Below, piece by piece: positions 82-16,408 of a DNA stretch of 38,011 bases. Below the pieces are notes generated by a model that searched no databases, was not told where the DNA came from, and worked only from the letters and a program-made list of their open reading frames with translations. Positions within the stretch are counted from its first letter, which is position 1; each line of letters starts with the position of its first letter. The DNA is from a virus (taxonomy: Duplodnaviria > Heunggongvirae > Uroviricota > Caudoviricetes). Where the stretch lies: IMG/VR virus record IMGVR_UViG_2585427747_000001, positions 1 to 38,011 of that record, one strand, 5' to 3'. A program made the position numbers and the translations under genes.

Positions 82-101
82 TTTTACCCGCTATTTTACC
101 C
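82..101. promoter_or_regulatory. Two TTTTACCC motifs at the attL arm (candidate integrase arm-type or RDF binding sites)
   Basis: attttacccgctattttaccc; the same octamer occurs three times around the intS start at ~37836-37881. Confidence 0.4.
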
Positions 102-296
102 ATTGGCGCGGCTTAAGAGCTTATTTTTGAATTCACAATGGTCACGATATAACCATCTTGCTCGCCCGTGGATAACTTTGGCTTTTGGCAGGTCGCCTGA
201 CTTAATCCGGTCATAGATGAAGGTTTTACCAAAGCCAGTATCAGCCATGATGAATTTCAAATCAACCAGTGAATCAGGCTGTAGTTCGTGTTGCAT
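96..296 (-). CDS. torI: Recombination directionality factor / excisionase (AlpA-like winged-helix); matches TorI of KplE1
   Basis: 66-aa ORF next to attL; sequence MQHELQPDSLVDLKFIMADTGFGKTFIYDRIKSGDLPKAKVIHGRARWLY has the AlpA/Xis-type DNA-binding signature; synteny with intS and a tRNA-Arg site. Identity to TorI is from memory, not a search. Confidence 0.75.
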   Translation of the reverse strand: MQHELQPDSLVDLKFIMADTGFGKTFIYDRIKSGDLPKAKVIHGRARWLYRDHCEFKNKLLSRANG

Positions 297-427
297 GAGT
301 GCTATCTCCGAATAGGGAATCGAACCTGCAAATCAGGTAATAAAAATACGCTCTATGACGGCGATGGTAGATCAGGATATTTTAAGAAACTGACAGGCCT
401 CATCGAGTGTGAGGCTGTATGGCTCCA

Positions 428-772
428 TTATTTCACCTCTTGCTGTGACATTGTTGAAAAACGGATACCAGCTCGTTGCTGCCAGACGATCCAACCGAGA
501 GTCATATCCCATGCCATGTATTCGTTATCGCCGTTTTTTGCTCTCCGACGATCGACTGTTTTACCGAAACGCTTTTCCATAAATAATTCATAGGCTGCGC
601 GTTCATCTGGCTCAACTTCCAGAGATGCCAGTGCAATCCGTGCCAGTTCTAAATCATTTTCAAGCTCAGCGCGAATCTCAGCGAATGCACTCTGTGTTAA
701 GGCGAACTCAATGCTCTGCACTTTATTCCGTGCGCGCTCAAGCAGTGCATGGTAGTTAATTTCGGTTGTCAT
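428..772 (-). CDS. Hypothetical early-left-operon phage protein
   Basis: 114-aa ORF, start abuts the stop of the upstream PAPS-reductase-like gene; protein-like composition; no recognisable motif. Confidence 0.55.
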   Translation of the reverse strand: MTTEINYHALLERARNKVQSIEFALTQSAFAEIRAELENDLELARIALASLEVEPDERAAYELFMEKRFGKTVDRRRAKNGDNEYMAWDMTLGWIVWQQRAGIRFSTMSQQEVK

Positions 773-1647
773 ACCCCTACCTCTTCGAATTCCAATTCCA
801 ATTGATCACCCCAGATTTCACATGACTCTGAACACGAACCGGTATCGAATCGCCTGGCCTGTACCATCGCCTGATACAAATTTCTGTAGTCGCTGTTGGC
901 AGACATTCTGGCAATTCCGTCAAGCGTCAGGTGACCACGGTACATAATGTCTTTACCTGTTCTGCGATGACCATCCCTGACGTGTTTGCCTGTAACCAGC
1001 TCATTAAAAACTCGCATCAGACCTGGTTCGTCTTTACATGCAAGCTCCAGCTTTTGCGTTGACTTTTTGATGCAGAAAACACAGTTCCCGAGATGCTCCG
1101 GGATTTGCAAATCAAAAGGTTGTTTTCGCCACCACCGGATAACATCCGACTTATCAAAATCTGACAGCTCGGCAAGATACCGGACGCCCGATTTCGGTTT
1201 CAGCCTACGGGGTTCGTCTGCACGAATACCCAGCCATGTGATGTAATTACCTCGCCCGAAATGGTTATCGCAGTATTTCGTGAAAGGGATGAGTTTTAGC
1301 CTGTCAGTACAGAACGCGCCGCCGATGTATGGCGTGCCGTACTTTTTAACCATGTCCATAAACGGTTTAAGCACCGGCATTCGTGTCTGAATATCCTTTG
1401 GCTCCCATTCTGTATAACCATTTGGCTGCCCAAGCTCAGGATTTATATCGACTTGTAACACAGTTAGTGGTATGTCCCAGAACTTTACAACCTCCCGGAT
1501 AAAGCGGTATGTCAGCGGATGTTCGCAACCGGTATCCATAAAGATGTAGCAGACGTTATTGCCAGCCTTTCTTTGTTCTTCCATCAGGTGAACAAGATAT
1601 GCGGATGTTCTCCCGCCAGAAAAACTAACTACATGAGTTATGCACAT
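769..1647 (-). CDS. Phosphoadenosine-phosphosulfate (PAPS) reductase family / PP-loop ATP pyrophosphatase-like protein
   Basis: PP-loop motif SFSGGRTSA near the N-terminus; start trimmed to the internal Met (MCITHVVSFSGG…), which gives a 10-bp overlap with the upstream gene instead of a 127-bp overlap. Confidence 0.7.
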   Translation of the reverse strand: MCITHVVSFSGGRTSAYLVHLMEEQRKAGNNVCYIFMDTGCEHPLTYRFIREVVKFWDIPLTVLQVDINPELGQPNGYTEWEPKDIQTRMPVLKPFMDMVKKYGTPYIGGAFCTDRLKLIPFTKYCDNHFGRGNYITWLGIRADEPRRLKPKSGVRYLAELSDFDKSDVIRWWRKQPFDLQIPEHLGNCVFCIKKSTQKLELACKDEPGLMRVFNELVTGKHVRDGHRRTGKDIMYRGHLTLDGIARMSANSDYRNLYQAMVQARRFDTGSCSESCEIWGDQLELEFEEVGV

Positions 1648-2174
1648 TTGCGTAATTCCGATAACTCGTTGAAGCGTTCCATAAACATCCCGTAGGCATG
1701 GCCCGGTGCCAGTGGAATAACTTTGAACATCTCTGTTGCCGGGATACCTTCCAGTACAGGCCATAAAGAGCCATCATCAAGCCCGAGATCACGGCGTTCG
1801 GTTGCCAGCATAATGAGATCGGCATATTTCACTGGCGTGCTCATAACAGGAGGTAACCCGTATTTCTCACGGATTACTGCATCTATTTTTTCTTCCATCC
1901 GTTTATAGTCAGGAAGAAGGCGTTTCAGTGGTGCGGGGATGTCCTGGCAATACGCTTCTGTTGCATCATGCATTAACGCTTCAAAAGCAAATTCCTGCGG
2001 CACCAGCTGGCTGCAAAGCACCGCATGTTGGGCGACACTGTAGAAGTGAGAAAGATGACCGGCAAAGCGACAGATATTTGAAAGGGAAACCGCGATATCG
2101 TTAATCACGATGTCGTCTTTATTTATCTTGTCATAATAAAAATGCTTCCCGGAAAAAGTTTTAATAAATGACAT
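1638..2174 (-). CDS. HD-domain metal-dependent phosphohydrolase
   Basis: H…HD motif (…HAVLCS…LMHDATEAY…); start moved to the internal ATG (MSFIKT…) preceded by GGAGA. Confidence 0.7.
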   Translation of the reverse strand: MSFIKTFSGKHFYYDKINKDDIVINDIAVSLSNICRFAGHLSHFYSVAQHAVLCSQLVPQEFAFEALMHDATEAYCQDIPAPLKRLLPDYKRMEEKIDAVIREKYGLPPVMSTPVKYADLIMLATERRDLGLDDGSLWPVLEGIPATEMFKVIPLAPGHAYGMFMERFNELSELRKCA

Positions 2175-2301
2175 TTTGTTCTCCACGTATATGCGCTGCA
2201 CCGCGCTGAGTTTGGGTAAAAGGAAGCCCTCACCATCCGGTGATTATTGAGTTAATTACGTTTCCATAAATGCCCCCGCAGGGGCATTTGCAGTAATGAA
2301 A

Positions 2302-3126
2302 TCAGGCGGTGAAAGTACCAATAAAGGTTTCTACTTTGCTGTCTTTGAATTTCTCAACAAGCAGATCACGAAATTCGTTAGCCATATCTTCCTGCACCGC
2401 TTCCAGCTGAATAATGCGCAGAACCAGTACAGGACGATCGCCAGTGATAATGCTGAGGCGTAATTTAAACGGACGTTCTTTCAGACCTTCAAACGGAACG
2501 CATTTAAATTCAAATGCCACTGGCATAATGTCTTTGGTCTTCGCTTCGACAGATTCCATCAGGGAGCGTTTGCCGCTGAAGTCATTATCTTCAAAATCAG
2601 CGGTCTGGTTTGCTTCAATCGTGATTTTACGGATTGCCGCAGCCGCTTTTGTTGCCTGAATGGCGTCACCATTAGCATCAAAGCCCACAAGGTAGTCGGC
2701 CCAGTCTTCAATCCATTCTGCCAGTGATTTCTGGGAGTTACGCTCGCCGTTAACAGACAACAGGGCAGAGAACGGTGCTGTCTTTTTCAGTTTGAGAGTG
2801 GCGGTGTTATCTGCGTGACCTGGTTCATCAATAGTACCCAGGTTAAGCACACTGACGGCACGCATATTATCAGCATCGATAAAGCAGCGGGTGCCTTCAT
2901 CTGCAAGATCTTTAGAATAACGGGTAAAGTCATCGATGCTGGCAGTGGAAAGCGCACCACGGAAACGGAAGCGATTTAAATTAAATTTTTCCAGATCATG
3001 AATGCGGAAATTCTCAGGCAATGCCACAGCATCGGCACCAATCTTACTGATAATTTCATTAACACCCTGAGCAGAAATAAGGGCATGGATTTGATTAATT
3101 GCGGTTGCGTCTAAGTTCTGAGACAT
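2302..3126 (-). CDS. DUF2303 (YfdQ-like) prophage protein
   Basis: 274-aa ORF in the leftward early operon; resembles the YfdQ family of CPS-53/KplE1 by recollection; function unknown. Confidence 0.6.
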
Positions 3127-3191
3127 AATAAGTCCTCACTATATAAAGATATTCAGTGATGAGATAAATAATCAGTTAATTAAAAACGATA

Positions 3192-3554
3192 TTAACGACC
3201 TGCTGCGCGGAGTTTTCCGTCAGGTTCACCGGCAAGAGTCAGTAACTGTCCCTGGTCTTCCTGCAGAATAGTCAGGCGACCACCGCGATTGACATACATC
3301 GGCGTTTCGGTGGTGTCTTCTTCGGAAATTTTCCCGCGGTTAGTCGGGCGAACATATGAGAGTTTGTGTTTGATTTTCACACGGTTCTCATCAAATGGTT
3401 CGATTTCCAGGTTGAGTGAGACCTTACCTTTGGTTTTCGTGTTCATCACACCGGAAGCGACTTCACTGAGAACTGCGCCGATTTTGGTTTCAAATACGCC
3501 GCCGTCCAGCTCCCCGATAAATGCCTGCACATCAGTACTGCGTTCGCTAGCCAT
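3192..3554 (-). CDS. Hypothetical prophage protein (120 aa)
   Basis: The ORF track gives 226 aa, but the 5' extension runs through a GC-rich structured region; an internal ATG (MASERSTDVQAF…) is preceded by GAGGAG and gives a compact 120-aa product. Confidence 0.55.
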   Translation of the reverse strand: MASERSTDVQAFIGELDGGVFETKIGAVLSEVASGVMNTKTKGKVSLNLEIEPFDENRVKIKHKLSYVRPTNRGKISEEDTTETPMYVNRGGRLTILQEDQGQLLTLAGEPDGKLRAAGR

Positions 3555-3602
3555 TTTGCTGCTCCTCATCATATCGACCCTGCAAGGCCGATTAGTTTCT
3601 CC

Positions 3603-3691
3603 ACAAAACAGAGAAGAACACCTGCGGTGGCAGCCGCCCGGATGGATTGGGTTATGAGCCCGTCGTCCGGTGATGCTCTTCTCTGTTTTGT
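3603..3691. other. Long inverted repeat (15-bp arms acaaaacagagaaga / tcttctctgttttgt, ~59-nt spacer with further internal pairing) in a GC-rich non-coding stretch
   Basis: Read directly from the sequence; lies in a 470-bp region (3555-4022) covered only by overlapping ORFs on both strands without protein-like character. Confidence 0.6.
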
Positions 3692-3957
3692 AAAAAGGAC
3701 GGTACCAGCCGGAAGCAAGGGTACAAACTGGTACCGCCGGGACTACACACAGCATAAAGTTGTGGTGCCGGGTGCCTCCCGGTGCCTGGCGAAGGTTGCA
3801 CACCAGACGGGTGGGTATCCACAGAAGGTCGACTGTCAGCCTCAACCTTAACCCGCGTGCGCTGAGCCGCATTCACCACAACGCTAAGGATTCTCTCTGG
3901 TTAAAAATACTTAGCTGTTATGTGCCTGCTTTTAGCCACATCAGGCGAGGTGGACCT

Positions 3958-4022: not shown

Positions 4023-4457
4023 ATGTCCGGTAATATCTACACGCTGTACAAATCCCACTGTGAAAATGTTGGAAAGTATCGGGGCATTGAAATCAGTGGG
4101 GTAGTGTCATCAGTCGAAATAAGCAAAGTGGAATCAAGGGCAACATTACTTACTCTTCTGGACCTTGTCTTACATGAGCACCGGAAGAAATTCGGCACTC
4201 CCTATAATCAGTTGAATGGGAAAAAGGCTCTGGTTCACCTTATTCTGATGAAGCATCACTGGATGCCAAAACAGATTAATGAGATGAAATTTGATGAACT
4301 TCTTCTTTCAATTCAGGATGAACTCACACTTGATAAAATAAGCGTAACCGCCCAGAAATTTTTAGATTATCGAGACTGGAGATCACAAATTCATCACTTT
4401 GATGATTTTGACGAAAATGAATGGGATCCTAATTTGTCTGCACAATATCTAAAGTAA
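4023..4457 (+). CDS. Hypothetical AT-rich accessory protein (144 aa), antisense to the leftward early operon
   Basis: Clean ORF with RBS; visibly lower GC than the flanking phage genes; no recognisable motifs; 3' end overlaps the convergent small gene by ~29 bp. Confidence 0.6.
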   Translation: MSGNIYTLYKSHCENVGKYRGIEISGVVSSVEISKVESRATLLTLLDLVLHEHRKKFGTPYNQLNGKKALVHLILMKHHWMPKQINEMKFDELLLSIQDELTLDKISVTAQKFLDYRDWRSQIHHFDDFDENEWDPNLSAQYLK

Positions 4458-4932: not shown

Positions 4933-4955
4933 TAAAAAGCCACCTTTCGGTGGCC
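4933..4955 (-). terminator. Rho-independent terminator downstream of the repressor gene
   Basis: GC stem gccacc/ggtggc with a tttc loop; on the minus strand it is followed by a T-run. Confidence 0.55.
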
Positions 4956-4974: not shown

Positions 4975-5667
4975 TTAATTATGTCTCTTAAGGGTTTGCG
5001 ACTGACTGATTAAGACCTTTCCAAAGACCATGAATCGGTGTTCGTTTTCGCTAGTAATTCCCCATTCACGGTAAATCTGGTTATCAGAAATCACCAGCAG
5101 TTTGTCAGGAATCATTTGAAGTCTTTTAACGTATATTTTGTCATCAAAACCAAAGACATATATACCATCACCATCAAACTGATTGATGCTGACATCAACG
5201 AAGATGAGATCTCCTGGCTCAATGGTTGGACACATACTGTCCCCACGAACGTTGATAACTTTGATGTGATTGGCTGGTCGTCCGCCGAACATTGATACAG
5301 CATTATCAGTTCTGTATTCGATGGCATGAATCACATCAATGACATCACCGCCCTGGATAAGGCCATTTCCCGCACTGGCACTGATATCCAGCATTTCAAT
5401 ACGGAACACATCCTTCACCTGCGCAACATCCTCATTATTACTGTTTTTATATACAGTATTACTTTTGTGGGCAGAGGTAAAGAGATCAGCAATATCAACA
5501 CCTAAGCTCTTGGCAATATTACTCAGTGTTTGTTCGGTAAATTGTTTTTGCTTACCCGTTTCTAAGCGCGAGATGTTCGCCGCATCTACTCCTATTGCTT
5601 CAGCGAGATCGGCGATTTTCATGTTCTTCGCTTGGCGAAGTTGTCTGACTCGGTTTCCTATGTTCAT
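4975..5667 (-). CDS. CI-like prophage repressor (N-terminal HTH, C-terminal S24 LexA-type peptidase domain)
   Basis: N-terminal HTH (RVRQLRQAKNMKIADLAEAIGVDAANISRLETGKQ); 230 aa; divergent from a cro-like gene with operators between. Confidence 0.8.
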   Translation of the reverse strand: MNIGNRVRQLRQAKNMKIADLAEAIGVDAANISRLETGKQKQFTEQTLSNIAKSLGVDIADLFTSAHKSNTVYKNSNNEDVAQVKDVFRIEMLDISASAGNGLIQGGDVIDVIHAIEYRTDNAVSMFGGRPANHIKVINVRGDSMCPTIEPGDLIFVDVSINQFDGDGIYVFGFDDKIYVKRLQMIPDKLLVISDNQIYREWGITSENEHRFMVFGKVLISQSQTLKRHN

Positions 5668-6025: not shown

Positions 6026-6569
6026 GCATCACTGGAAAGTAGAAAAACAGCCTGAGTGGTACGTGAAAGCTGTCAGAAAAACTATCGCAGCGTTGCCGGG
6101 GGGGTACGCTGAAGCTGCTGACTGGCTGGATGTAACAGAGAACGCATTATTTAACCGCCTTCGTGCCGATGGCGATCAGATTTTCCCGCTGGGATGGGCA
6201 ATGATTTTGCAACGTGCTGGTGGAACTCACTTCATTGCTGACGCTGTGGCCCAGTCTGCAAATGGCGTCTTTGTGTCTCTTCCTGATGTCGAGGATGTGG
6301 ACAACGCCGATATCAACCAACGCCTGCTGGAGGTCATTGAACAGATCGGCAGTTATTCAAAACAGATTCGTTCAGCAATTGAAGACGGTGTAGTGGAACC
6401 GCATGAGAAGACAGCAATTAACGACGAGCTGTACCTCTCAATTTCGAAGCTGCAGGAGCATGCAGCACTGGTCTACAAAATTTTTTGCATTTCAGAAAGT
6501 AATGACGCCCGCGAGTGTGCAGCTCCGGGCGCCGTGGCGTGTCGTGACTGTGGAGAAACTAACGCATGA
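6018..6569 (+). CDS. CII-like phage regulatory protein (CP76 family)
   Basis: Position immediately after cro; 183 aa; family assignment from overall resemblance, not a search. Confidence 0.55.
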
Positions 6570-6904
6570 ATAGTTTAACAACACACTACCGTCGCTCGCA
6601 ACTGATTGCGCTTCCTGTACCGGGTGGAAAAGCGAAGGTGGAGTATTGCTATGCAGTGAATGTACCAGGTGGCAGGGTAATTGTAACCCACAGCTTTGCA
6701 GAGTGGGCTGTGGGTGATTTTAACCGGCAAAAGGAGACAGTCCTTTGCGACAAGTTAACCGCTGGTTCAAAGATCACTACGGAGTACCCGTCAGAGTCAT
6801 TCGTTGGGAGCCGGAAACACAACGGGTTATCTACCTCCGCGAAGGCTATGAGCATGAATGCTTCAGTCCGCTCGAACAGTTTCGTCGTAAATTCAGGGAA
6901 ATAG
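6566..6904 (+). CDS. Hypothetical protein; the C-terminal half is Ser-rich and not protein-like, so the true gene may be shorter or frameshifted
   Basis: 112-aa ORF; start overlaps the upstream stop (ATGA); see the alternative overlapping frame at 6745-6924. Confidence 0.4.
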
Positions 6905-6924
6905 AGGTCGGTCATGAGCACTAA
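6745..6924 (+). CDS. Candidate small protein (~59 aa) with a TTG start in the alternative frame (…[58 protein letters not shown])
   Basis: AGGAGA RBS 7 nt upstream of the TTG; far more protein-like than the overlapping frame; its stop overlaps the start of the replication gene (ATGAGCACTAA), suggesting translational coupling. Confidence 0.4.
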
Positions 6925-7855
6925 ATTAACCGGCTATGTATGGGATGGTTGCGCAGCGTCAGGCATGAAATTATCCAGCGTGGCAATTATGGCACGCCTG
7001 GCTGATTTCAGTAATGACGAAGGTGTGTGCTGGCCATCAATTGAAACCATTGCCCGCCAGATTGGCGCGGGGATGAGTACCGTCAGAACGGCTATCGCAC
7101 GGCTGGAAGCAGAAGGCTGGTTAACGCGTAAGGCGCGTCGCCAGGGTAACCGCAATGCGTCGAATGTTTATCAGCTTAACGTTGCGAAGCTTCAGGCTGC
7201 GGCTTTTTCTCAACTGTCAGATTCTGACCCGTCAAAATCTGACGCATCAAAATCTGACCCGTCAAAATTTGATGCGTCGAAATCTGGCAAAAAAGCGGGT
7301 TTTCACCCGTCAGAATCTGGCGGGGATCCGTCAGTAAAATCAAAACATGATCCGTCAGATAAAAAAACTTCTCGTCCGGACGCTTCGCAACCGGACACGC
7401 AGAAGGCTGAACAGGATTTTTTAACTCGCCATCCTGATGCGGTTGTATTCAGCCCTAAAAAGCGCCAGTGGGGGACGCAGGATGATTTGACCTGCGCACA
7501 GTGGCTCTGGAAAAAAATCATCGCCCTGTACGAGCTGGCTGCCGAATGTGACGGCGAGGTGGTTCGTCCCAAAGAACCGAACTGGACAGCCTGGGCAAAC
7601 GAAATTCGCCTGATGTGTGTGCAGGATGGTCGTACTCACAAACAAATCTGCGAGATGTACAGCCGCGTCAGCCGCGATCCGTTCTGGTGCCGTAACGTGC
7701 TCAGCCCGTCGAAGCTGCGGGAAAAATGGGATGAGCTTTCCCTGCGCTTATCGCCGTCCGTAAGCACGTACACCGAAAAACGCGAAGACCCGTACTTCAA
7801 ATCCAGTTACGACAACGTGGACTACAGCCAGATCCCGGCAGGATTCAGGGGGTGA
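6914..7855 (+). CDS. Replication initiation protein (lambda O-like HTH N-terminus with an internal repeat/linker region)
   Basis: N-terminal winged-helix (VCWPSIETIARQIGAGMSTVRTAIARLEAEGWL); internal DSDPSKSDASKSDPSKFDASKSG repeats encoded by DNA iterons; position after the cII-like gene. Confidence 0.7.
   Translation: MSTKLTGYVWDGCAASGMKLSSVAIMARLADFSNDEGVCWPSIETIARQIGAGMSTVRTAIARLEAEGWLTRKARRQGNRNASNVYQLNVAKLQAAAFSQLSDSDPSKSDASKSDPSKFDASKSGKKAGFHPSESGGDPSVKSKHDPSDKKTSRPDASQPDTQKAEQDFLTRHPDAVVFSPKKRQWGTQDDLTCAQWLWKKIIALYELAAECDGEVVRPKEPNWTAWANEIRLMCVQDGRTHKQICEMYSRVSRDPFWCRNVLSPSKLREKWDELSLRLSPSVSTYTEKREDPYFKSSYDNVDYSQIPAGFRG
7219..7365. repeat. Iteron-like array of ~7 copies of (C)CGTCARAATCTGA, ~15-bp period, inside the replication initiator gene; candidate origin of replication
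   Basis: Read directly: cccgtcaaaatctga / cgcatcaaaatctga / cccgtcaaaatttga / gcgtcgaaatctgg / cccgtcagaatctgg / tccgtcagtaaaatc / tccgtcagataaaaa. Confidence 0.55.
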
Positions 7856-8346
7856 TCATGAGTCTGTTAAATGACGTTCAGAAATTCATTGAAGCCCATC
7901 CGGGGTGTACTTCCGGAGACATTGCGGATGCTTTTGCAGGTTACTCACGGCAGCGCGTTCTGCAGTCAGCAAGCAAGTTACGTCAGAGTGGGCGTGTGGC
8001 TCACCGTTGTGAAGGGGATACACGCAGACATTTCCCGCGCCTGACTGAGAGAGCGCAGGAGCCGGAACCACAACCAGTTCGTGAAACCAGACCTGTGCGC
8101 AATTTCTATGTCGGCACTAACGATCACCGGGTGATTTTGTGCCTGACCCGCCAGGCTGAAGAACTGGAGTCAAGGGGCTTATACCGTCGTGCTGCAACCG
8201 TGTGGATGGCGGCATTCCGTGAAAGCCACTCCCAGCCAGAACGAAACAATTTTCTGGCGCGTCGTGAGCGGTGCTTACGGAAAATCAGCAAGCGCGCTGC
8301 ATCGGGTGAAGAGTGGTATCTGTCAGGGAATTACGTGGGGGCTTAA
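7852..8346 (+). CDS. PerC-like transcriptional regulator (tentative)
   Basis: C-terminal LYRRAATVWMAAFRES resembles the PerC-family signature as recalled; the CDS is well supported but the function is weakly supported. Confidence 0.5.
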   Translation: MIMSLLNDVQKFIEAHPGCTSGDIADAFAGYSRQRVLQSASKLRQSGRVAHRCEGDTRRHFPRLTERAQEPEPQPVRETRPVRNFYVGTNDHRVILCLTRQAEELESRGLYRRAATVWMAAFRESHSQPERNNFLARRERCLRKISKRAASGEEWYLSGNYVGA

Positions 8347-8999
8347 TGAGTAATAAATATTGTCAGGCGCTGGTGGAACTGCGGAACAAACCAGCCCATG
8401 AACTGAAGGAAGTGGGCGATCAGTGGCGCACGCCGGATAACATTTTCTGGGGAATTAACACCCTGTTTGGTCCGTTTGTTCTGGATCTGTTCACTGACGG
8501 TGATAACGCCAAATGTGCTGCGTATTACACGGCGGAAGACAACGCGCTGGCGCATGACTGGTCAGAACGTCTTGCGGAGCTTAAAGGTGCTGCCTTTGGT
8601 AATCCCCCATACAGCCGCGCCAGTCAGCATGAGGGGCAATACATCACCGGCATGCGTTACATCATGAAACATGCCAGTGCTATGCGTGATAAAGGCGGGC
8701 GCTATGTTTTCCTGATCAAAGCTGCCACCAGCGAAGTTTGGTGGCCGGAAGATGCAGACCATATTGCTTTTATTCGCGGGCGTATTGGTTTTGAACTGCC
8801 TGCCTGGTTTATCCCGAAGGATGAGAAGCAGGTGCCGACAGGAGCGTTCTTCGCTGGTGCTATTGCTGTTTTCGACAAGACCTGGAAGGGACCGGCAATC
8901 AGCTACATCGGGCGCGATGAACTTGAGGCATGTGGTGAGGCGTTTCTGGCGCAGGTTCGCCAGCAGGCGGAAAAACTGGTCAGGGAGATGGCGGCATGA
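8346..8999 (+). CDS. Phage DNA N6-adenine methyltransferase
   Basis: Catalytic NPPYS motif (FGNPPYSRA); start trimmed to MSNKYCQ…, whose ATG overlaps the upstream stop (TAATG). Confidence 0.75.
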   Translation: MSNKYCQALVELRNKPAHELKEVGDQWRTPDNIFWGINTLFGPFVLDLFTDGDNAKCAAYYTAEDNALAHDWSERLAELKGAAFGNPPYSRASQHEGQYITGMRYIMKHASAMRDKGGRYVFLIKAATSEVWWPEDADHIAFIRGRIGFELPAWFIPKDEKQVPTGAFFAGAIAVFDKTWKGPAISYIGRDELEACGEAFLAQVRQQAEKLVREMAA

Positions 9000-9322
9000 C
9001 GACGTTAACTCAATGCCAGCAGCAGGTGCTGGATATGCTGATTTCTTACCAGAAAGAACGGGGCTTCCCGCCAACCAATCAGGAGGTGGCAACCATGCTG
9101 GGATATCGTTCGGTGAATGCAGCGGTAGAGCATCTTCGCGCACTGGAGAAAAAAGGCGTCATCACGATAAAGCGTGGCGTGGCCCGGGGGATAACGCTTC
9201 ATACCGCGGTCAAGGACGACGACAGCGAGGCGGTCGGGATTATCCGCGCACTGCTTGCCGGTGAGGAAAACGCCAGGCTGCGTGCGACCCACTGGTTACA
9301 TGAGAGGGGCATGAAAGTATGA
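8996..9322 (+). CDS. Stand-alone LexA N-terminal DNA-binding-domain protein (no peptidase domain)
   Basis: LTQCQQQVLDMLISYQKERGFPPTNQEVATMLGYRSVNAAVEHLRALEKKGVI closely follows the LexA winged-HTH pattern; only 108 aa, so no S24 domain. Confidence 0.65.
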   Translation: MTTLTQCQQQVLDMLISYQKERGFPPTNQEVATMLGYRSVNAAVEHLRALEKKGVITIKRGVARGITLHTAVKDDDSEAVGIIRALLAGEENARLRATHWLHERGMKV

Positions 9323-9708
9323 AGCTGATTCTGCCTTTTCCGCCCAGCGTGAACACGTACTGGCGACACCCCAACAAAGGGGCGTTTGCAGGTAAAAGCC
9401 TGATAAGCGAGGCGGGGCGAAAATTCCAGAGCGCGGCGTGCGCAGCAATAGTTGAGCAGTTACGTCGTCTGCCGAAACCAACGTCGGCACCTGCTTCAGT
9501 GGAGATCGTGTTGTTTCCTCCAGATAACCGGATCCGCGATCTGGACAACTATAACAAGGCTCTGTTTGACGCCCTGACCCACGCGGGTGTGTGGGAAGAC
9601 GACAGTCAGGTGAAAAGAATGCTGGTGGAGTGGGGACCGGTTATCCCGGAAGGGAAGGTCGAGATCACTATCAGTAAGTACGAGAAAACGGCGGGTGCAG
9701 CCGCCTGA
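9319..9708 (+). CDS. rusA: RusA-family Holliday junction resolvase
   Basis: Conserved RusA pattern (PPSVNTYWRH…, …RDLDNYNKALFDALTHAGVWEDDSQV…); 129 aa. Confidence 0.8.
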   Translation: MKLILPFPPSVNTYWRHPNKGAFAGKSLISEAGRKFQSAACAAIVEQLRRLPKPTSAPASVEIVLFPPDNRIRDLDNYNKALFDALTHAGVWEDDSQVKRMLVEWGPVIPEGKVEITISKYEKTAGAAA

Positions 9709-9727
9709 TTAAGAGGAGAAACGAAGT

Positions 9728-10525
9728 ATGAATAATCTGATGGTCATTGATGGTATTGAAGTTCGTCGTGATGCTTATGGTCGTTACAGCCTGAACGATC
9801 TGCACAGGGCTGCCGGTTCTCTGGATAAGCATAAGCCTGCATTCTGGCTCCGCAATGAGCAAACTGAACGTTTAATAAGCGAGTTGCAGATTTGCAACTC
9901 GGTCAATATAGAGCCAGTTAACGTTATTCGTGGCGGAAATAACCAGGGGACGTATGTCTGCAAAGAACTGGTGTATGCCTATGCAATGTGGATCAGCCCG
10001 TCATTCCATCTGAAGGTGATCCGTACTTTCGACATGGTAACCAGCGCACCTGAAAAATTATCCGGACAGGCTGCTGACAAGATGCAGGCTGGCGTGATTC
10101 TGCTGGACTTTATGCGCCGGGAATTAAACCTGTCTAACTCATCAGTGCTTGGTGCCTGTCAGAAACTCCAGGAGGCTGTTGGCTTACCGAATCTGGCACC
10201 GCGCTATGCCATTGATGCTCCTGCTGACGCGCCTGATGGCTCAAGTCGCCCCACGCTGTCGCTGAGTGCACTGCTGAAACAGTATGGTATCCGCCTGACG
10301 GCTAATCAGGCATATCACCAGATGGTGAAGCTGGGGATCGTCGAGCAGCGCGAACGATACAGCCGTACCGCGATTAACAACATCAAAAAATTCTGGTCGC
10401 TGACAGCGAAAGGCTGCATGTTCGGCAAGAACATCACCAGTCCCGCAAATCCGCGCGAGACGCAGCCGCATTTCTTCGAATCCCGATTCCCTGAGCTGTT
10501 AAAGCTGCTCGATACCGTTCATTGA
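9728..10525 (+). CDS. KilA-N domain protein (antirepressor-like)
   Basis: N-terminal KilA-N-like region (IDGIEVRRDAYGRYSLNDLHRAAG…AFWLRNEQTERLISEL). Confidence 0.65.
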   Translation: MNNLMVIDGIEVRRDAYGRYSLNDLHRAAGSLDKHKPAFWLRNEQTERLISELQICNSVNIEPVNVIRGGNNQGTYVCKELVYAYAMWISPSFHLKVIRTFDMVTSAPEKLSGQAADKMQAGVILLDFMRRELNLSNSSVLGACQKLQEAVGLPNLAPRYAIDAPADAPDGSSRPTLSLSALLKQYGIRLTANQAYHQMVKLGIVEQRERYSRTAINNIKKFWSLTAKGCMFGKNITSPANPRETQPHFFESRFPELLKLLDTVH

Positions 10526-10526
10526 G

Positions 10527-11522
10527 GTGACCGTGAGAGCACTACTGACTCCTGAAATTGCCCCGCGTATGGGGATCGTATTGTTCAGGCCAGGTTCAGA
10601 GCTGATGCCCCTGTTTATGCAGGGGCGTGTCCTGCTGGAGCCTGAGCCGGAACGTTATTCATCTTTTGCCAGTGGTGCCGTTCCGGCGGTATCACAACCG
10701 CTGGCGGATGATCCTGCCGTTCGGGGCGTGTTCCGCAATGAGGCAGTGATCCGTCGTGCTGGTGGCGTGGAATGTCTTGAAAGCTGGTTACTTCGTGAAA
10801 AGGGCTGTCAGTGGCCTCATTCCGACTGGCACAGCGAGAACATGACCACAATGCGGCACGCGCCGGGCGCAATCCGTCTGTGCTGGCACTGCGATAACCA
10901 GTTGCGCGATCAGTTCACGGAACGGCTGGAATCAATGGCAACGGATAACTGTGCCCGCTGGGTATTGTCTGTTGTGCGTCGGGATCTCGGTTTTGATGAC
11001 AGTCACGTTGTGACAATGCCGGAACTGTGCTGGTGGCTGGTTCGTAATGACCTGGCGGATGCCTTACCGGAAAGTGCAGCCCGTAAGGCACTGAGATTAC
11101 CGAAGCCTGTTGTGCCGTCTGTCACCCGGGAAAGTGACCTTGTGCCTTCGGTTCCTGCCACCAGCATCATCCAGGATAAGGCGAAAAAGGTGCTGGCGCT
11201 GAAAGTGGATCCGGAGTCGCCGGAGTCTTTTATGTTACGCCCAAAACGTCGCCGCTGGGTTAATGAAAAGTACACGCGCTGGGTTAAGACACAGCCGTGT
11301 GCATGTTGTGGAAAGCCTGCTGATGATCCCCACCACCTGATAGGCCACGGTCAGGGTGGGATGGGTACAAAAGCGCATGACCTCTTTGTGTTGCCTTTGT
11401 GCAGAAAGCATCACGACGAGCTGCATGCGGATACCGTGGCATTTGAAGAGAAGTATGGCTCCCAGCTGGAGCTGATATTTCGTTTTATCGATCGTGCGCT
11501 GGCAATTGGCGTGCTGGCCTGA
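10527..11522 (+). CDS. DUF968-family prophage protein with a C-terminal Cys/His (HNH-like) cluster
   Basis: C-terminus CACCGKPADDPHHLIGHGQGG…LPLCRKHHDELH; typical position before Q in lambdoid prophages. Confidence 0.6.
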   Translation: MTVRALLTPEIAPRMGIVLFRPGSELMPLFMQGRVLLEPEPERYSSFASGAVPAVSQPLADDPAVRGVFRNEAVIRRAGGVECLESWLLREKGCQWPHSDWHSENMTTMRHAPGAIRLCWHCDNQLRDQFTERLESMATDNCARWVLSVVRRDLGFDDSHVVTMPELCWWLVRNDLADALPESAARKALRLPKPVVPSVTRESDLVPSVPATSIIQDKAKKVLALKVDPESPESFMLRPKRRRWVNEKYTRWVKTQPCACCGKPADDPHHLIGHGQGGMGTKAHDLFVLPLCRKHHDELHADTVAFEEKYGSQLELIFRFIDRALAIGVLA

Positions 11523-11539
11523 TTTTGTGGAGAAAGTTG

Positions 11540-11890
11540 ATGCGTGATATGTATGAAGTATTGGACCGCTGGGGAGCATGGGCTGCAGCAGATAACAGTG
11601 GCGTGGACTGGCAGCCGATAGCAGCAGGCTTCAAGGGGCTTTTACCTCATGGCAAAAAGTCACGGATTCAGTGTGATGATGACGAAGGCATTATGATAGA
11701 CAGTTGTGTGGCTCGGTTGAGAAGGTATAAACCAGAGGAATATGAGCTCATCATAGCCCACTTTGTTATTGGTATCTCATTACGCACTATTGCCAAAAAG
11801 AGAAGGTGTTCAGATGGCACGATTAGAAAGGAATTGCAAACTGCAATTGGTTTTGTAGAGGGTATTACGAGCGTTATTGCATGTAAATAA
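11540..11890 (+). CDS. Late-gene antiterminator Q (QuuD-type)
   Basis: MRDMYEVLDRWGAWAAADNSGVDWQPIAAGFKGLL… closely parallels QuuD-type Q proteins; start trimmed to the internal Met. Confidence 0.75.
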   Translation: MRDMYEVLDRWGAWAAADNSGVDWQPIAAGFKGLLPHGKKSRIQCDDDEGIMIDSCVARLRRYKPEEYELIIAHFVIGISLRTIAKKRRCSDGTIRKELQTAIGFVEGITSVIACK

Positions 11891-11892
11891 AA

Positions 11893-11925
11893 GTTAAAAG
11901 CCACCGTAGTGGCTTTTAACTTTTT
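11893..11925. terminator. Strong hairpin (12-bp stem gttaaaagccac/gtggcttttaac, cgta loop) plus T-run just after the Q stop; candidate bidirectional terminator
   Basis: Read directly from the sequence. Confidence 0.65.
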
Positions 11926-12096
11926 AGGATTGTGCAGGTAATGTTTTGTTCAATTTAGTAAAGAAGTTAGATTGGCTTGTTACAGTACGTCGACTCTTTC
12001 CAGAAGTACTCAACTGAAAGAAATCATTGATGCTTTTGGGTTGAGTTCTTTCATAGGCTTGCTTAAGTGACATGTGTTCCCCTTGTCTATTTGTTG

Positions 12097-13380
12097 CTAT
12101 GACCGTGAAAAGTAGTGATGGTTCAGTTCTTTTGCAAAATAGTGCTTACGTTTAACCCAGATAAAACCATCAGCTTTAGAAATGATTGCAACATCTATGG
12201 GGCCTCCCACTGTTTCAGTATCATCGGAGACCTTGCGCTTGAAAGCGGTTAAATTTACTAATGATTCAGCCATATAAGCTAAATCTTGCTTGGGTAAAAA
12301 CTCGATCATATTTACGACTTTGTCAACATAGTTTTCTCGGACAAAGCTATCAATACGCCCCTTGCAATCGGAAACAGTCCTGCGCACTACATCAACTATA
12401 GCATCCTTGGCTCCTTCGATATCTGAAGTGGGCACCAAATCTGTGATTACTGAATCAATACCATCAAGTAAATCGCCGATAGAACGTTGATACTCAGCAT
12501 GAAGATTTTGGATAAGATGTGAACTAGCTCCTTGCATGAAAGCAGAAACTTCATCCTCTTGCGCAAAGGGAGTCACTCCGCAATTAGGAGTGATGCAGCA
12601 CTTGTCAGCATCTGTGGTTTTCCTGATTTTATCATTAAAGAAGCCACAAACTTCATATGATAATACTTTAGGGTAATAGTCTTTATCGCCATAACCTGCA
12701 ATCACAATCCCAGAGACGGAACCAATATCACTTTGCTTGCATATCATAGCTGCCAATACATCACTAACTGCTTTTGTCAACTGTGGAGTTATGGATATTG
12801 AATCAAAGTCACTAAACTTTTGAGCAATGATGCGTTGGGTAACTGATGAAGCATAGGTTTGGGCTGCTTGTTCATCATCCGGAGTAAAACCATCAAAGTA
12901 ATTAATATCAGATAATTTTGTAAGGAGATCGTTGCAATAATTCGTGAGGTCTGTAACAAATTGATTCTTATCGAAGTTAACGAAATATGTTGGTTCGAGA
13001 CCTTCAGAAAAAGCATCAACAAGCATGCTGAATACAATCTCGCTCAGGAAGTGATAAAGATGAGCCTCACGCATACCTGGTGTGATGATTGATTTAGCCG
13101 ACTGTAGATAATTGAAGAAATCCTCAGCATATTCCTCCAAAGAGTCAAAACATTTAGAGCCTAAATCCTTTCTATAAGCCTTAATGATAAGCTCCCATGG
13201 AGCTGTGCAGAGATCACCAGTTCCATATACCATCAAACCTACAGGATGATGTTTAGTTAGAGCGAAAAGCTTTTCAGCGCCATTATAGATTTTATGTTTG
13301 CCGCCTCCAGAAATCGTTACAGCTGAATCTGCGGCTAAAGCTACTGCGGTCTTGTTAAATACGGCTATTTCTGCTGTCAT
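12097..13380 (-). CDS. Proteasome/HslV-like Ntn-hydrolase-domain protein (427 aa); AT-rich accessory gene in the Q-to-lysis slot
   Basis: N-terminus MTAEIAVFNKTAVALAADSAVTIS…VGLMVYGTGD mirrors HslV (Thr after the initiator Met, Asp at mature position 17, downstream Lys); C-terminal GGPIDVAIISKADGFIWV resembles the proteasome beta C-terminal strand; opposite strand to its neighbours; visibly low GC. Confidence 0.6.
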   Translation of the reverse strand: MTAEIAVFNKTAVALAADSAVTISGGGKHKIYNGAEKLFALTKHHPVGLMVYGTGDLCTAPWELIIKAYRKDLGSKCFDSLEEYAEDFFNYLQSAKSIITPGMREAHLYHFLSEIVFSMLVDAFSEGLEPTYFVNFDKNQFVTDLTNYCNDLLTKLSDINYFDGFTPDDEQAAQTYASSVTQRIIAQKFSDFDSISITPQLTKAVSDVLAAMICKQSDIGSVSGIVIAGYGDKDYYPKVLSYEVCGFFNDKIRKTTDADKCCITPNCGVTPFAQEDEVSAFMQGASSHLIQNLHAEYQRSIGDLLDGIDSVITDLVPTSDIEGAKDAIVDVVRRTVSDCKGRIDSFVRENYVDKVVNMIEFLPKQDLAYMAESLVNLTAFKRKVSDDTETVGGPIDVAIISKADGFIWVKRKHYFAKELNHHYFSRS

Positions 13381-13488
13381 TTTTTACATAGGGTTTATAT
13401 GTTGTGTAATGAGAAAAATACAAAAAAATTAACGCGTACGCAAAAATTCTTGTAATCTGTTAAGAGTGGTTACTTCGCCACACAGCTT

Positions 13489-13519
13489 AAACCCGTCTTC
13501 GAGCGGGTTTTGTCGTTTC
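13489..13519 (+). terminator. Hairpin aaacccg…cgggttt followed by a T-rich tract upstream of the lysis genes; candidate tR'-like terminator/antitermination target
   Basis: Read directly; lies between the accessory gene start and the holin. Confidence 0.4.
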
Positions 13520-13662
13520 TGGCCCCGGCTATTCGTTGGGCCTGACCTATCCCGCAGTTATCCATTGGTTCGGCTTCTTTGACGTTTCCGCTTCTGATTT
13601 GCGGTACATGATGTTCCCTCAATTTGCACCTGCTGTATCAGCGAGGTGAGAGATAACTACAA

Positions 13663-13989
13663 ATGCCTCATAACCCAAATACCTGGCTGGAGTTGGTCCA
13701 GAGCTGGTGGCGTGGAGACACACCGCTGGGCGCAGTGATTATGTCGATCGTTATGGCTGGCTTGCGCATTGCCTATTTTGGCGGTGGTGGTGGCTGGAAA
13801 CGAAAAACGCTCGAGATTTTGCTCTGTGGTGCTCTGACGCTGACTTTTGCATCCGCTCTTGAGTATGTCGGATGGCCTAAATCTCTTTCTGTTGCCATTG
13901 GTGGCGGCGTTGGGCTGATCGGTGTCGATGCTATTCGTGGGGCTGCAATGCGAGTAATCGGTAACAAATTTGGTAGCTCGAAGGAGTAA
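13663..13989 (+). CDS. Holin (lambda S-like class I)
   Basis: 108 aa with hydrophobic segments and a charged C-terminus; directly upstream of the R-like endolysin. Confidence 0.75.
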   Translation: MPHNPNTWLELVQSWWRGDTPLGAVIMSIVMAGLRIAYFGGGGGWKRKTLEILLCGALTLTFASALEYVGWPKSLSVAIGGGVGLIGVDAIRGAAMRVIGNKFGSSKE

Positions 13990-13992
13990 TTT

Positions 13993-14469
13993 ATGCAGGC
14001 ACTAAATTCCCAGCGTAAAGCTTTCTTGGATATGGTTGCATGGTCAGAAGGAACGGATAACGGGCGACAACCGACACGTAACCACGGTTATGATGTCATT
14101 GTCGGTGGTGAACTGTTTACTGATTACTCCGATCATCCTCGCAAACTTGTCACGCTAAACCCGAAACTCAAATCAACAGCAGCCGGACGTTACCAGCTTC
14201 TTTCACGCTGGTGGGATGCTTACCGTAAACAGCTTGGCCTGAAAGATTTTTCTCCAGAAAGCCAGGACGCTGTAGCTCTGCAGCAGATTAAAGAGCGTGG
14301 CGCTTTACCGATGATTGACTGCGGCAATATTCGTCAGGCAATCGACCGTTGCAGCAATATCTGGGCGTCGTTACCTGGTGCAGGTTACGGTCAGTATGAA
14401 CATAAAATCGGCGACCTGATTGCCCGATTTAAAGAGGCTGGTGGGGAAGTAAATGAAGCTGAGATATAA
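13993..14469 (+). CDS. R: Endolysin, lambda R-type lytic transglycosylase
   Basis: Near-identity over long stretches to lambda R as recalled (NSQRKAFLDMVAWSEGTDNGRQPTRNHGYDVIVGGELFTDYSDHPRKLVTLNPKLKST…). Confidence 0.9.
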   Translation: MQALNSQRKAFLDMVAWSEGTDNGRQPTRNHGYDVIVGGELFTDYSDHPRKLVTLNPKLKSTAAGRYQLLSRWWDAYRKQLGLKDFSPESQDAVALQQIKERGALPMIDCGNIRQAIDRCSNIWASLPGAGYGQYEHKIGDLIARFKEAGGEVNEAEI

Positions 14470-14845
14470 GCTGGTTATTGTTGCCTTCTTTGTTACCGTT
14501 ATTGGTTCCTTCATCTGGTCTACCGGGCATTACTACAGCAAATATCAACACGAAAAGGAGCGTGCTGATGAGGCTGTACGAAATGCTGAATCAGCAACTG
14601 CCATTACCCGTAACGTTCTGCAATCACTGCAAATCATCAATACAGTTATAGAGGCTAACCAACATGCAAAACAGCAGATCGCACTGGAGTCACAGAGAAC
14701 CCAGGAAGATATCAAAGTGGCTGTTGCGGATGATGATTGTGCTGCACGTCCTGTGCCTGCTGCCGCTGCTGACCGGTTGCGGAAGTACGCGGACGGTTTA
14801 CGTGAGCGATCCGGTGGCACCGCTGCCAGCCAGCCTGACTTCTGA
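14453..14845 (+). CDS. Rz-like inner-membrane spanin
   Basis: N-terminal TM segment, then coiled-coil; follows the endolysin; contains the embedded Rz1 frame. Confidence 0.7.
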   Translation: MKLRYKLVIVAFFVTVIGSFIWSTGHYYSKYQHEKERADEAVRNAESATAITRNVLQSLQIINTVIEANQHAKQQIALESQRTQEDIKVAVADDDCAARPVPAAAADRLRKYADGLRERSGGTAASQPDF

Positions 14846-15002
14846 TACTCCAGTACCGTTTATACCCAATCCGCTGACGTATGGTACCAGTCTGGAGTTG
14901 AATGTTGCTCTATTGTCAGCCTTGGGACAATGTAATTTTGATAAAACTGGAATCAGAAATATTGAATCACGGCGCGCTATTTTGCATTCGAAAAATAAAT
15001 AG
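14730..15002 (+). CDS. Rz1-like outer-membrane lipoprotein spanin, embedded in the +1 frame of Rz
   Basis: Lipobox LLTGC after a hydrophobic signal (MMIVLHVLCLLPLLTGCGS); Pro-rich mature region; start at the internal Met of the 14664 ORF. Confidence 0.6.
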   Translation: MMIVLHVLCLLPLLTGCGSTRTVYVSDPVAPLPASLTSDTPVPFIPNPLTYGTSLELNVALLSALGQCNFDKTGIRNIESRRAILHSKNK

Positions 15003-15370
15003 CTCGAGTTATATTTTTCATTATCGTTGCGAATGCTCCTAATAAAGCTGTGTATTATGGTAATTTTATAAAGCCTATGGGTTTAAGTTCAGATGCTAGC
15101 GTTTTTATAGCGTAATGTAGCAGCTTACATAAAATATGCATCGTGATTAACTATTAGGCCAACCTTTTGGACCAATATGAAAGTGGAAGTTTATACAAAT
15201 CGTTTGTCGATGATTAAACATGTGTCTAGTAGCGCTAGTCATGAACAGGTTTATTACGTATCATTTTGTGTAGATTATCGAGAGTACAACTAGTAGAGCA
15301 GCTAATCTTTAGATAGTGCCAGTGATGTTCACTTGCGATAAACTAACCTTTTCATTCAGTGGAGGTTATT

Positions 15371-15805
15371 ATGTGGCATACATTACTTAACTGGCCTTGG
15401 GGAACTGTGTGGTCAGCTGTATCGGCTTTAGGTTCAATTGTAACTGTTACATTAGGTTTTTGGGCAATGAATGTTTGGCGGCGACAGGAGGCTCTGAAGG
15501 CCAAAATGGCTCTGAAAATGGCAGTGGCTGATTATTCAAATGCATTATCACAACTACCTTTATCTCTTAGTCGTAATGTTCGTATTGAAAAAAGGGCCGA
15601 GCTACGAGAGTTAAATCATAAATTAAATGCTGTTAATAATGCTTTTTTGATATGCGAACATATGTTGGAAAAATACCCGCGTGTAAACAGCGGTTGTCGT
15701 TCTTTATCTGTTGCCCACAAAGAATATATTAGAATGAGAGATAATAGTATTCAGGCGAAATATATTTGTCATAATATCCTTTCAGAACAGTTTGTATTCA
15801 AATGA
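15371..15805 (+). CDS. Hypothetical membrane protein in an AT-rich island after the lysis cassette
   Basis: N-terminal TM helix (LLNWPWGTVWSAVSALGSIVTVTLGFWAM); GGAGG RBS 5 nt upstream of the ATG; low-GC 930-bp island 15003-15930. Confidence 0.55.
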   Translation: MWHTLLNWPWGTVWSAVSALGSIVTVTLGFWAMNVWRRQEALKAKMALKMAVADYSNALSQLPLSLSRNVRIEKRAELRELNHKLNAVNNAFLICEHMLEKYPRVNSGCRSLSVAHKEYIRMRDNSIQAKYICHNILSEQFVFK

Positions 15806-15932
15806 AAATGAACGATTGGTATTTACTTGCCGTTTATTCATTGGATTGAAAAGTCTATTTAACAAACCGTGTTAAAGCGGTTTCTGATTGCAGTTATGGT
15901 TAGATATTTAACGAAAACTACAGGGGTAATAG

Positions 15933-16283: not shown

Positions 16284-16307
16284 TAATAACTCTCAACTGT
16301 CTGAGGG

Positions 16308-16370
16308 GAGGGGCGGGTCACATCCCTGTGACCTGACGTCTTCCGGACTGCCCGCCCCATCGTTTTTTTA
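16308..16370 (+). terminator. GC-rich stem (gggcggg…cccgccc) with a nested hairpin, followed by TTTTTTT; terminator/structured element between HNH and the small terminase gene
   Basis: Read directly; could alternatively be part of a cos region. Confidence 0.5.
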
Positions 16371-16408
16371 TACCCGCGAAAAATGAAATTTAACCAGGAG
16401 TGCCGCAT

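Follow-up and report, generated by a model that had tools for sequence, protein, structure and literature searches.

We analysed a 38,011-nt stretch of viral DNA (IMG/VR record IMGVR_UViG_2585427747_000001, positions 1 to 38,011; below, the window) and in it a group of leftward genes that includes a gene for a protein resembling 3′-phosphoadenosine-5′-phosphosulfate (PAPS) reductase, a gene for an HD-domain phosphohydrolase (yfdR) and a DUF2303 gene (yfdQ). We propose that this region forms the distal portion of a lambdoid prophage's leftward early operon and that it would be a mosaic of two independent units. The first, yfdP–yfdQ and usually yfdR, would be a host-takeover module expressed on induction, by which host initiation of replication could be shut off in favour of a phage encoding only an O-like initiator. 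The second, a mobile cassette with a homologue of lambda ninC, here in place of yfdS, would act on DNA alongside Dam-type methylation and serve as a counter-defence against phosphorothioate-dependent (Dnd-type) restriction. To this explanation as a whole we assign a probability of about 0.55.

By its sequence the window is an SfV/CPS-53-type lambdoid prophage, a full-length relative of the cryptic prophage CPS-53 of Escherichia coli K-12. The gene set is already catalogued; the genes belong to the early region of an E. coli prophage that is very common, and they are not a new kind of system. As a discovery the set carries little weight: annotations of it exist in thousands of E. coli genomes, the K-12 copy has been studied and the relation to missing recombination (Rec) modules was the subject of a 2025 publication.

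A preliminary description of the region had listed the PAPS-reductase-like, HD and DUF2303 open reading frames (ORFs). All three are present on the minus strand within 769–3126, with domain labels that agree with Pfam and PHROG, and they do belong to one operon. The operon is longer than described, with yfdP upstream and a yfdT-like gene and xis/torI downstream that had not been listed. The compact ORF run covers 96–3554 in the order yfdP, yfdQ, yfdR, ninC-like gene, yfdT-like gene and xis/torI; gene starts were taken from the RefSeq annotation of a 99.8% identical E. coli chromosomal prophage.

Conservation of the yfdP–yfdQ pair

A set of 68 yfdQ loci was found with a 5-sequence alignment in one-genome-per-species collections, and includes Pseudomonas, Proteus, Xenorhabdus, Marinobacter, Hahella and Burkholderiales. 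The loci were scanned with hidden Markov models, and the genes around the pair were also grouped by same-strand ORF calling and clustering. A yfdP homologue lay immediately upstream of yfdQ in 64 of the 64 loci with upstream DNA. A yfdR-type HD gene was seen within about 2.6 kb downstream of yfdQ in 31 of the 68 loci and a NinC homologue within 7 kb in a single locus, one lacking yfdR; the combination of yfdQ, yfdR and ninC was not found in any of the 68. The genes that follow the pair vary (HD, C5 methylase, DEDD exonuclease), and in prophage loci the pair has a CI-like S24 repressor on one side (46 loci) and xis/int on the other. We also observed yfdP–yfdQ adjacency in Vibrio phages 36E38.1 and VvAW1, Xanthomonas phage CP2, Pseudomonas phage LPPA56 and E. 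coli phage ArgO145.

A first scan of viral contigs in IMG/VR returned near-identical E. coli loci only, and is fit for statistics on gene slots, not on diversity. In its 80 loci yfdP was directly upstream of yfdQ in every case, with yfdR next in 78. The window conforms to this order: yfdP (3192–3554, minus strand; 120 aa, 98.3% identical to K-12 YfdP; phrog_204, 3.8e-50) lies 65 nt upstream of yfdQ (2302–3126, minus strand; 274 aa, 100% identical to K-12 YfdQ; PF10065, 4.3e-93) on the same strand. The conserved unit is yfdP–yfdQ; the real conserved partner of the DUF2303 gene is yfdP, which had been missed.

The window YfdQ matches PF10065 along positions 2–269 of 269 with 311.9 bits (cut-off 26.6), and the conserved YfdQ motifs include RxRFRG, PGHAD and EDW. 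A PDB entry named ‘YfdQ Protein’, 9o7m, matches it with 2e-44 and consists of 36 chains, which may represent a large homo-oligomer. Compared by eye, 9o7m is ∼90% identical to the YfdQ of Xanthomonas phage CP2 (L006, 3068–3892), and it probably comes from a CP2-like Xanthomonas phage. A literature search (‘9O7M’, recent YfdQ papers) found no paper on the entry, and it was not returned from the Foldseek PDB library with entries released up to 2026-04-08. No similarity of the YfdQ fold was seen to solved single-strand annealing proteins (SSAPs) or SSBs of the Rad52, RecT, Rad51 or Gp2.5 type.

For YfdP, neither the single sequence nor a 35-sequence profile had a Pfam or PDB relative, and neither YfdP nor the CP2 ORF36 protein was in the PDB copy searched. 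PF27127 is apparently a more recent Pfam family that covers YfdP, missing from the Pfam copy searched, because in two E. coli proteins that carry this precomputed label (P0010 and P0073) an in-frame deletion has joined the N-terminus of YfdP to the C-terminus of YfdQ. The strict linkage of the pair extends from prophages of Pseudomonas to marine Vibrio phages, and the fold was unmatched in the searches run.

Piel et al. described in Vibrio phages a 5.7-kb region that holds, besides SSB and ‘two proteins of unknown function’, an exonuclease gene that mutates to escape retron Ec48. In Vibrio phage 36E38.1, a relative (L003, 27757–32744), we observed yfdP and yfdQ homologues between a DnaQ-like exonuclease and SSB.

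A ninC-like cassette in the yfdS slot

The mechanically called PAPS-reductase-like ORF, 769–1764 (331 aa), is an over-extension; with the RefSeq start at 1647 the gene occupies 769–1647 (minus strand) and encodes 292 aa beginning MCITHVVSFSGGRTSA (PF01507, 2e-08; phrog_424, 5.7e-91). Its product shares 79% identity with lambda NinC across 98% of the length (residues 2–287, tblastn), and a gene of Stx2a phages is 93% identical (tblastn). By homology the gene is a counterpart of lambda ninC (orf-290 of the nin region, about 290 aa), and all residues invariant in the family are kept. The two copies differ in place, the lambda copy being in the ninB–ninD interval of the rightward nin region and the window copy in the leftward operon after yfdR.

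Alignment with relatives (blastn) delimits the exchanged segment. The window is 98–99% identical to K-12 and Shigella phage SfIV from 1640 rightwards and 93–98% identical left of 637; the intervening 638–1639 is a mosaic replacement, where K-12 CPS-53 and SfIV carry yfdS and the 5′ end of yfdT. In phage ArgO145 the ninC-like gene matches only window positions 760–1649, at 89%. Mosaic junctions coincide with gene ends, and the ninC-like gene is a gene-sized cassette in the yfdS slot. In the 80 IMG/VR loci whose YfdQ is near-identical, yfdR is followed by yfdS (DUF551) in 50 and by ninC in nine; the rest have neither in this slot.

When 80 IMG/VR loci were instead ranked by similarity to NinC, the gene followed yfdR in 33, followed yfdP, yfdQ and a phrog_1363 gene in seven (an ArgO145-like arrangement) and was in the nin region, as ninB-[dam]-ninC-ninD, in 21, with other contexts in the remainder. 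A dam gene was adjacent or fused in seven loci, three of them within the 21 of the nin region. For ninC there are at least three settings: behind yfdR, behind yfdQ and phrog_1363, and next to ninB or dam in the nin region. Lambda and phage Oslo have ninC in the nin region, with no yfdQ or yfdR there.

YfdR and proposed inhibition of host replication initiation

The HD gene yfdR (1638–2174, minus strand; 178 aa, 98.3% identical to K-12 YfdR; phrog_318, 1.3e-110) matches the YfbR-like Pfam family with 24.2 bits, slightly below the cut-off of 25.9 bits, and PDB entry 2gz4 with 5.5e-13; the H...HD residues are seen in the sequence as VAQH and LMHDATEAY. Its product would be an HD-domain 5′-deoxynucleotidase as well as a DnaA-binding protein.

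The K-12 proteins have been studied by genetics, pull-downs and in vitro replication (Noguchi & Katayama 2016, PMC4776307), so the preliminary description of these genes as not functionally characterised does not apply: for the homologues of the window YfdQ and YfdR there are published data on DnaA binding and on inhibition of initiation. In that study, multicopy yfdQ and yfdR together with yfdS or yfdT suppressed over-initiation, and initiation at oriC was inhibited in vivo and in vitro. Purified YfdR binds domain I of DnaA via Phe46, a residue also bound by DiaA and DnaB, and competes moderately with both; as an enzyme it is a weak deoxynucleoside monophosphate phosphatase with low nucleotidase affinities (PMC4776307). 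The set of yfdQ, yfdR and yfdT that was sufficient there is present in the window, and yfdS is not. Window YfdQ and YfdR are identical or near-identical to the K-12 proteins, whereas the yfdT-like protein (428–772, minus strand; 114 aa; phrog_660, 5.2e-23) is only 81% identical to K-12 YfdT, and only over the C-terminal 81 aa.

The sole replication gene detected in the early region is 6914–7855 (plus strand), for an O-like initiator or primosomal protein (phrog_391, 8.8e-135), and no gene for a P/DnaC-type loader or a helicase was seen there. The absence of a loader or helicase heightens the interest of a DnaA- or DnaB-directed takeover by YfdR. Our preferred reading of the first unit, extrapolated from the overexpression data, is that host initiation would be shut off on induction.

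NinC, adenine methyltransferases and a possible role in escape from Dnd restriction

In 26 sequences of the NinC family (51–79% identity) the invariant elements are S8xSGGRxS15, D38TGxEH43, C113, C126, C189xxC192 and C272xxxC276. The window protein carries every one of them, including the six cysteines and the SFSGGRTSA motif noticed earlier. Its AlphaFold2 model has a PP-loop alpha/beta fold (predicted local distance difference test score, pLDDT, of 86), with the C272xxxC276 pair in a low-confidence tail. The closest solved structures found by Foldseek were CysH/APS reductase (3e-05), followed by [4Fe-4S] LarE (5e-04), GMP synthetase, CysD and TilS. The SGGxxS PP-loop is degenerate in CysH, and the CysH C-terminus is ECGLH, the catalytic cysteine motif; the conserved C-terminus of NinC is DTGSCSESCE, and ECGLH is not present. 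We predict that NinC is an adenylating, ATP-using PP-loop enzyme with cysteines suited to an iron–sulfur (Fe–S) cluster and a mobile cysteine tail.

Among defence-system profiles (PADLOC) the best match was SspD (1.2e-14, residues 5–152), followed by BrxP (2.7e-04) and DndC (5e-03). These are PAPS-reductase-domain subunits of phosphorothioate systems, with which NinC shares the PP-loop domain and, in its cysteines, suitability for Fe–S; the likeness is limited to the N-terminal ∼150 residues of NinC. The DndC, SspD and BrxP systems also differ in needing NTPase, nickase or desulfurase partners for phosphorothioate synthesis, and none adjoin ninC.

In an exhaustive search of 1.84 billion representative proteins, 1598 NinC relatives passed E <= 1e-3, and 116 of them also passed E <= 1e-30. 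Among the best 150, seven are 450 aa or longer, and six of these seven contain an N6-adenine DNA methyltransferase domain: two are Dam-NinC fusions (P0242, P0244), three NinC-Dam fusions (P0243, P0248, P0278) and one joins NinC to a D12-class methyltransferase (P0250). The fusions are independent of one another; both orders and two Pfam methyltransferase families are represented. In Salmonella phage Oslo dam adjoins ninC. The window has its own phage-type Dam N6-adenine DNA methyltransferase, correctly described before, at 8346–8999 (plus strand, rightward operon; PF05869, 1.1e-45), and the best PHROG of this protein is the NinC-Dam fusion family phrog_33262 (3.8e-96, profile positions 283–492).

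The link to restriction comes from Piel et al. (bioRxiv 10.1101/2021.05.05.442762; Nat Microbiol 2022), who moved p0018 (PAPS-Dam) and p0019 of Vibrio phage 44E38.1 into a related phage, which then escaped the host Dnd system. The PAPS half of p0018 (P0196 in our set) is 55% identical to window NinC over about 280 aa (283 aligned; E 5e-98) with all invariant residues kept; its Dam half is 28% identical to window Dam. In p0018 the two parts are fused, while in the window dam stands alone, in the other operon and 6.7 kb from ninC. The Vibrio phage group of 44E38.1 shares with the window the yfdP–yfdQ pair as well. Moreover, a 2026 paper in Nucleic Acids Research lists phage PAPS reductases in Aca-regulated anti-defence operons.

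Points that weigh against this two-unit explanation concern both halves of it. The initiation phenotype came from multicopy or overexpression, deletion of yfdQRST had none and the authors concede a possible artefact; binding of YfdQ, YfdS or YfdT to YfdR or DnaA was not detectable; and yfdP was dispensable for suppression although it is the most tightly linked gene (all PMC4776307). Vibrio and Xanthomonas phages have yfdP–yfdQ without yfdR, beside exonuclease, SSB or Erf genes, and the core function may therefore not concern DnaA. As for NinC, the Vibrio anti-Dnd test moved p0018 jointly with p0019, p0018 itself being a Dam fusion; the window ninC ORF ends at 769 without a Dam domain, and a p0019 homologue was not found in the window (tblastn, E <= 1e-3). 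No P-loop NTPase of the DndD, SspC or BrxC type was found in the early region (Pfam, PHROG), where the neighbours of ninC are yfdR and the yfdT-like gene; as phosphorothioate synthesis is reported to need such a partner, the lack of an adjacent NTPase counts against de novo phosphorothioation by NinC alone. We know of no report of a modification of lambda DNA attributable to NinC.

A bolder version can be entertained, tentatively. In it the whole NinC family, lambda NinC included, would be Fe–S PP-loop DNA enzymes that work with Dam-type methyltransferases and install or mimic a sulfur or other non-canonical mark against Dnd-, Ssp- and BREX-4-type restriction, and yfdP–yfdQ would be an obligate two-protein module with an unmatched fold, possibly a large oligomer. 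If true, the best-studied phage would turn out to encode a DNA-modification or anti-restriction enzyme that has been overlooked. NinC is a conserved lambda gene product, and the methyltransferase fusions and the Vibrio anti-Dnd genetics lead to a concrete hypothesis that E. coli and lambda allow to be tested.

Missing recombination module and Chi sites

As stated in the preliminary description, exo/bet/gam-type genes are absent: Pfam and PHROG scans of the ORFs revealed no gene for Exo, an SSAP, Gam or another RecBCD inhibitor, or SSB in the early region. The only recombination gene found there was rusA (9319–9708). The Chi octamer GCTGGTGG occurs 13 times in the window versus 1.36 expected, a number reached in none of 100 shuffles (maximum 7); 11 of the 13 sites are on the plus strand and all are within 6216–25078.

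This combination has been described. A 2025 survey (Genome Res 2025, PMC12315714) defines an ‘LLS functional type’ of lambdoid phages that lack a Rec module and have many Chi sites, reports yfdR, yfdQ and yfdP as common in early-left operons and, as they coexist with a full Rec module in phage ArgO145, judges them unlikely to be recombination proteins. We confirmed the ArgO145 order as Gam, RecT, Exo, SSB, yfdP, yfdQ, phrog_1363, ninC. The window resembles the LLS type in lacking Exo, SSAP, Gam and SSB in the early region, in its early-left yfdR–yfdQ–yfdP and in its richness in Chi; it differs in that the LLS type is reported to have no nin-region recombination gene, while the window encodes RusA in the rightward operon and also carries the additional ninC cassette. 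The absent Rec module is explained by this known class of Chi-rich phages, and the earlier suggestion that the genes stand in place of a recombination module does not survive the published ArgO145 arrangement, where the same genes lie beside the complete Gam-RecT-Exo-SSB set.

One could still ask if yfdP–yfdQ provides a recombination or repair function that has escaped recognition, such as a non-canonical annealing protein or a mediator, and so compensates for the missing module. A DnaQ-type exonuclease and SSB flank the pair in Vibrio phages 36E38.1 and VvAW1, and in Xanthomonas phage CP2 it lies upstream of Erf, exonuclease and SSB; the 36 YfdQ chains of 9o7m could be ring- or filament-like; the window phage has RusA and no SSAP; and deletion of yfdQ makes cells mildly sensitive to methyl methanesulfonate (MMS) and H2O2 (PMC4776307). 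Yet complete Gam-RecT-Exo-SSB or Erf modules occur alongside the pair, the 2025 survey considers a recombination role unlikely, and the Chi enrichment points to reliance on host RecBCD. We consider such compensation unlikely. Because the Vibrio and Xanthomonas phages keep the pair among exonuclease, SSB and Erf genes, a broader role in DNA metabolism is plausible by analogy. A role of yfdP–yfdQ as an inhibitor of RecBCD was rejected, being hard to square with the strong enrichment in Chi.

Less probable explanations

The genes could serve the lysogen rather than the lytic cycle, as lysogenic-conversion or stress-tolerance genes that protect the host from H2O2, acid or MMS. Deletions of CPS-53, yfdQ or yfdS raise sensitivity to H2O2 or MMS (PMC4776307), and of 5426 complete E. 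coli genomes 3075 keep the yfdPQR segment. The phenotypes are weak, however; in 46 diverse loci the genes form a repressor-controlled early-left operon running from the CI-like repressor to xis/int, and they are also carried by Vibrio and Xanthomonas phages isolated as free phage. An explanation by host benefit is improbable to us.

NinC might also modify RNA and not DNA, for instance by thiolating tRNA anticodon loops in the manner of TtcA, TtuA, MnmA or TilS, and so evade anticodon nucleases. A PP-loop together with Fe–S-suited cysteines is typical of tRNA thiolases, and TilS, GMP synthetase and LarE-type sulfur transferases are indeed among the fold matches. The fusions, though, are with DNA N6-adenine methyltransferases, the phenotype linked to a homologue is escape from a DNA-based defence and the best profile is that of SspD, all of which make an RNA substrate quite improbable.

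The idea of the preliminary description, which assigns the PAPS-reductase-like enzyme, the HD hydrolase and DUF2303 to a single pathway of non-canonical nucleotide or DNA modification in the place of the recombination module, has the gene arrangement in its favour: the three genes are tightly packed on one strand, HD and PP-loop chemistries are both directed at nucleotides, a dam gene is present in the same phage and NinC-methyltransferase fusions exist. Nevertheless, it is largely refuted by the co-occurrence data and we regard it as very improbable. Position after yfdQ–yfdR belongs to yfdS and not to ninC in 50 of the 80 near-identical loci, as expected of a swapped cassette; lambda and Oslo keep ninC apart from yfdQ and yfdR; ArgO145 has a full Rec module beside these genes; and, with ninC near yfdQ in one of the 68 diverse loci and all three genes together in none, the trio does not extend beyond this phage family. 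What is left of the proposed role is plausible, by analogy, for NinC alone, where the SspD profile, the methyltransferase fusions and the 55% identity to p0018 speak for an anti-restriction activity; it does not hold for the trio. Parts of this idea about NinC have been published before.

We rejected, as hardly credible, the view that NinC is a true CysH-type PAPS reductase, an auxiliary metabolic gene product boosting host sulfur assimilation: it has a PF01507 match, PAPS reductase names from PGAP and PHROG and CysH/APS reductase as nearest solved folds, but the PF01507 match spans only profile positions 2–65 of 175, NinC fails the NCBIfam CysH model (PRK02090, 20.5 bits versus a cut-off of 154 bits), its SGGxxS loop is intact and its tail reads SCSESCE in place of ECGLH, and the methyltransferase fusions and anti-Dnd genetics point to DNA. 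Phage genes named ‘PAPS reductase’ or ‘cysH’ should accordingly not be taken as auxiliary genes of sulfur metabolism.

Relation to CPS-53 and other features of the early region

The E. coli chromosomal prophage 99.8% identical to the window has yfdP, yfdQ, yfdR and a ‘PAPS reductase domain protein’ annotated. In Shigella phages SfIV and SfV and many E. coli phages the region is 97–98% identical, with the PAPS-reductase-like gene missing. Among complete E. coli genomes the query was partly present, as the yfdPQR segment, in the 3075 genomes mentioned above, and the full stretch including the PAPS-reductase-like gene was found in 272.

K-12 CPS-53 (yfdP-yfdQ-yfdR-yfdS-yfdT-torI; Noguchi & Katayama 2016) resembles the window in gene order, strand logic and the flanking replication and Dam genes, and differs in having yfdS (DUF551) where the window has the ninC-like gene, and in the 5′ part of yfdT. 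It is also a remnant, while the window phage appears full-length. K-12 yfdO, yfdN and yfdM are truncated remnants of the O-like initiator, the PerC-like activator and Dam of the window phage: yfdO corresponds to the last 122 aa of the initiator, and yfdM aligns with residues 12–100 of the Dam ORF at 8313–8999, that is with the first 89 aa counted from the ATG at 8346. CPS-53 is therefore a deletion remnant of such a phage.

The leftward operon ends with xis/torI (96–296, minus strand; 66 aa, 100% identical to K-12 TorI; phrog_66 excisionase). Within the operon the yfdR and ninC-like genes overlap by 10 nt and the ninC-like and yfdT-like genes by 4 nt, while yfdQ and yfdR are separated by 127 nt. 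This spacer contains a GC-rich hairpin (2268–2289, minus strand; AAAUGCCCC-UGCG-GGGGCAUUU), whose 9-bp stem is present in both the minimum free energy and the centroid folds; the spacer as a whole has a folding z-score of only -1.88, the tail of the hairpin is a weak U tract, and a terminator scan did not call the hairpin at this position. It could be an attenuator or an RNA-stability element within the operon.

A strong, terminator-like hairpin is located at 4938–4955 (minus strand; GGCCACC-GAAA-GGTGGC followed by the T-rich run TTTTTATT), directly 3′ of the gene for the CI-like repressor (4975–5667), and would set the repressor transcript apart from the leftward early operon. Upstream of yfdP, the long ORF 3192–3872 consists of yfdP and an upstream extension, and in the RefSeq genome with 99.8% identity 3569–3879 (minus strand) carries the annotation of a hypothetical pseudogene with a frameshift. 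On the opposite strand, within the leftward early region, 4023–4457 (plus strand) is a gene of the ECs1072 family (phrog_5286, 1.5e-90); the surrounding 4–5 kb interval has a low GC content (0.41), and the gene looks like a moron-type insertion.

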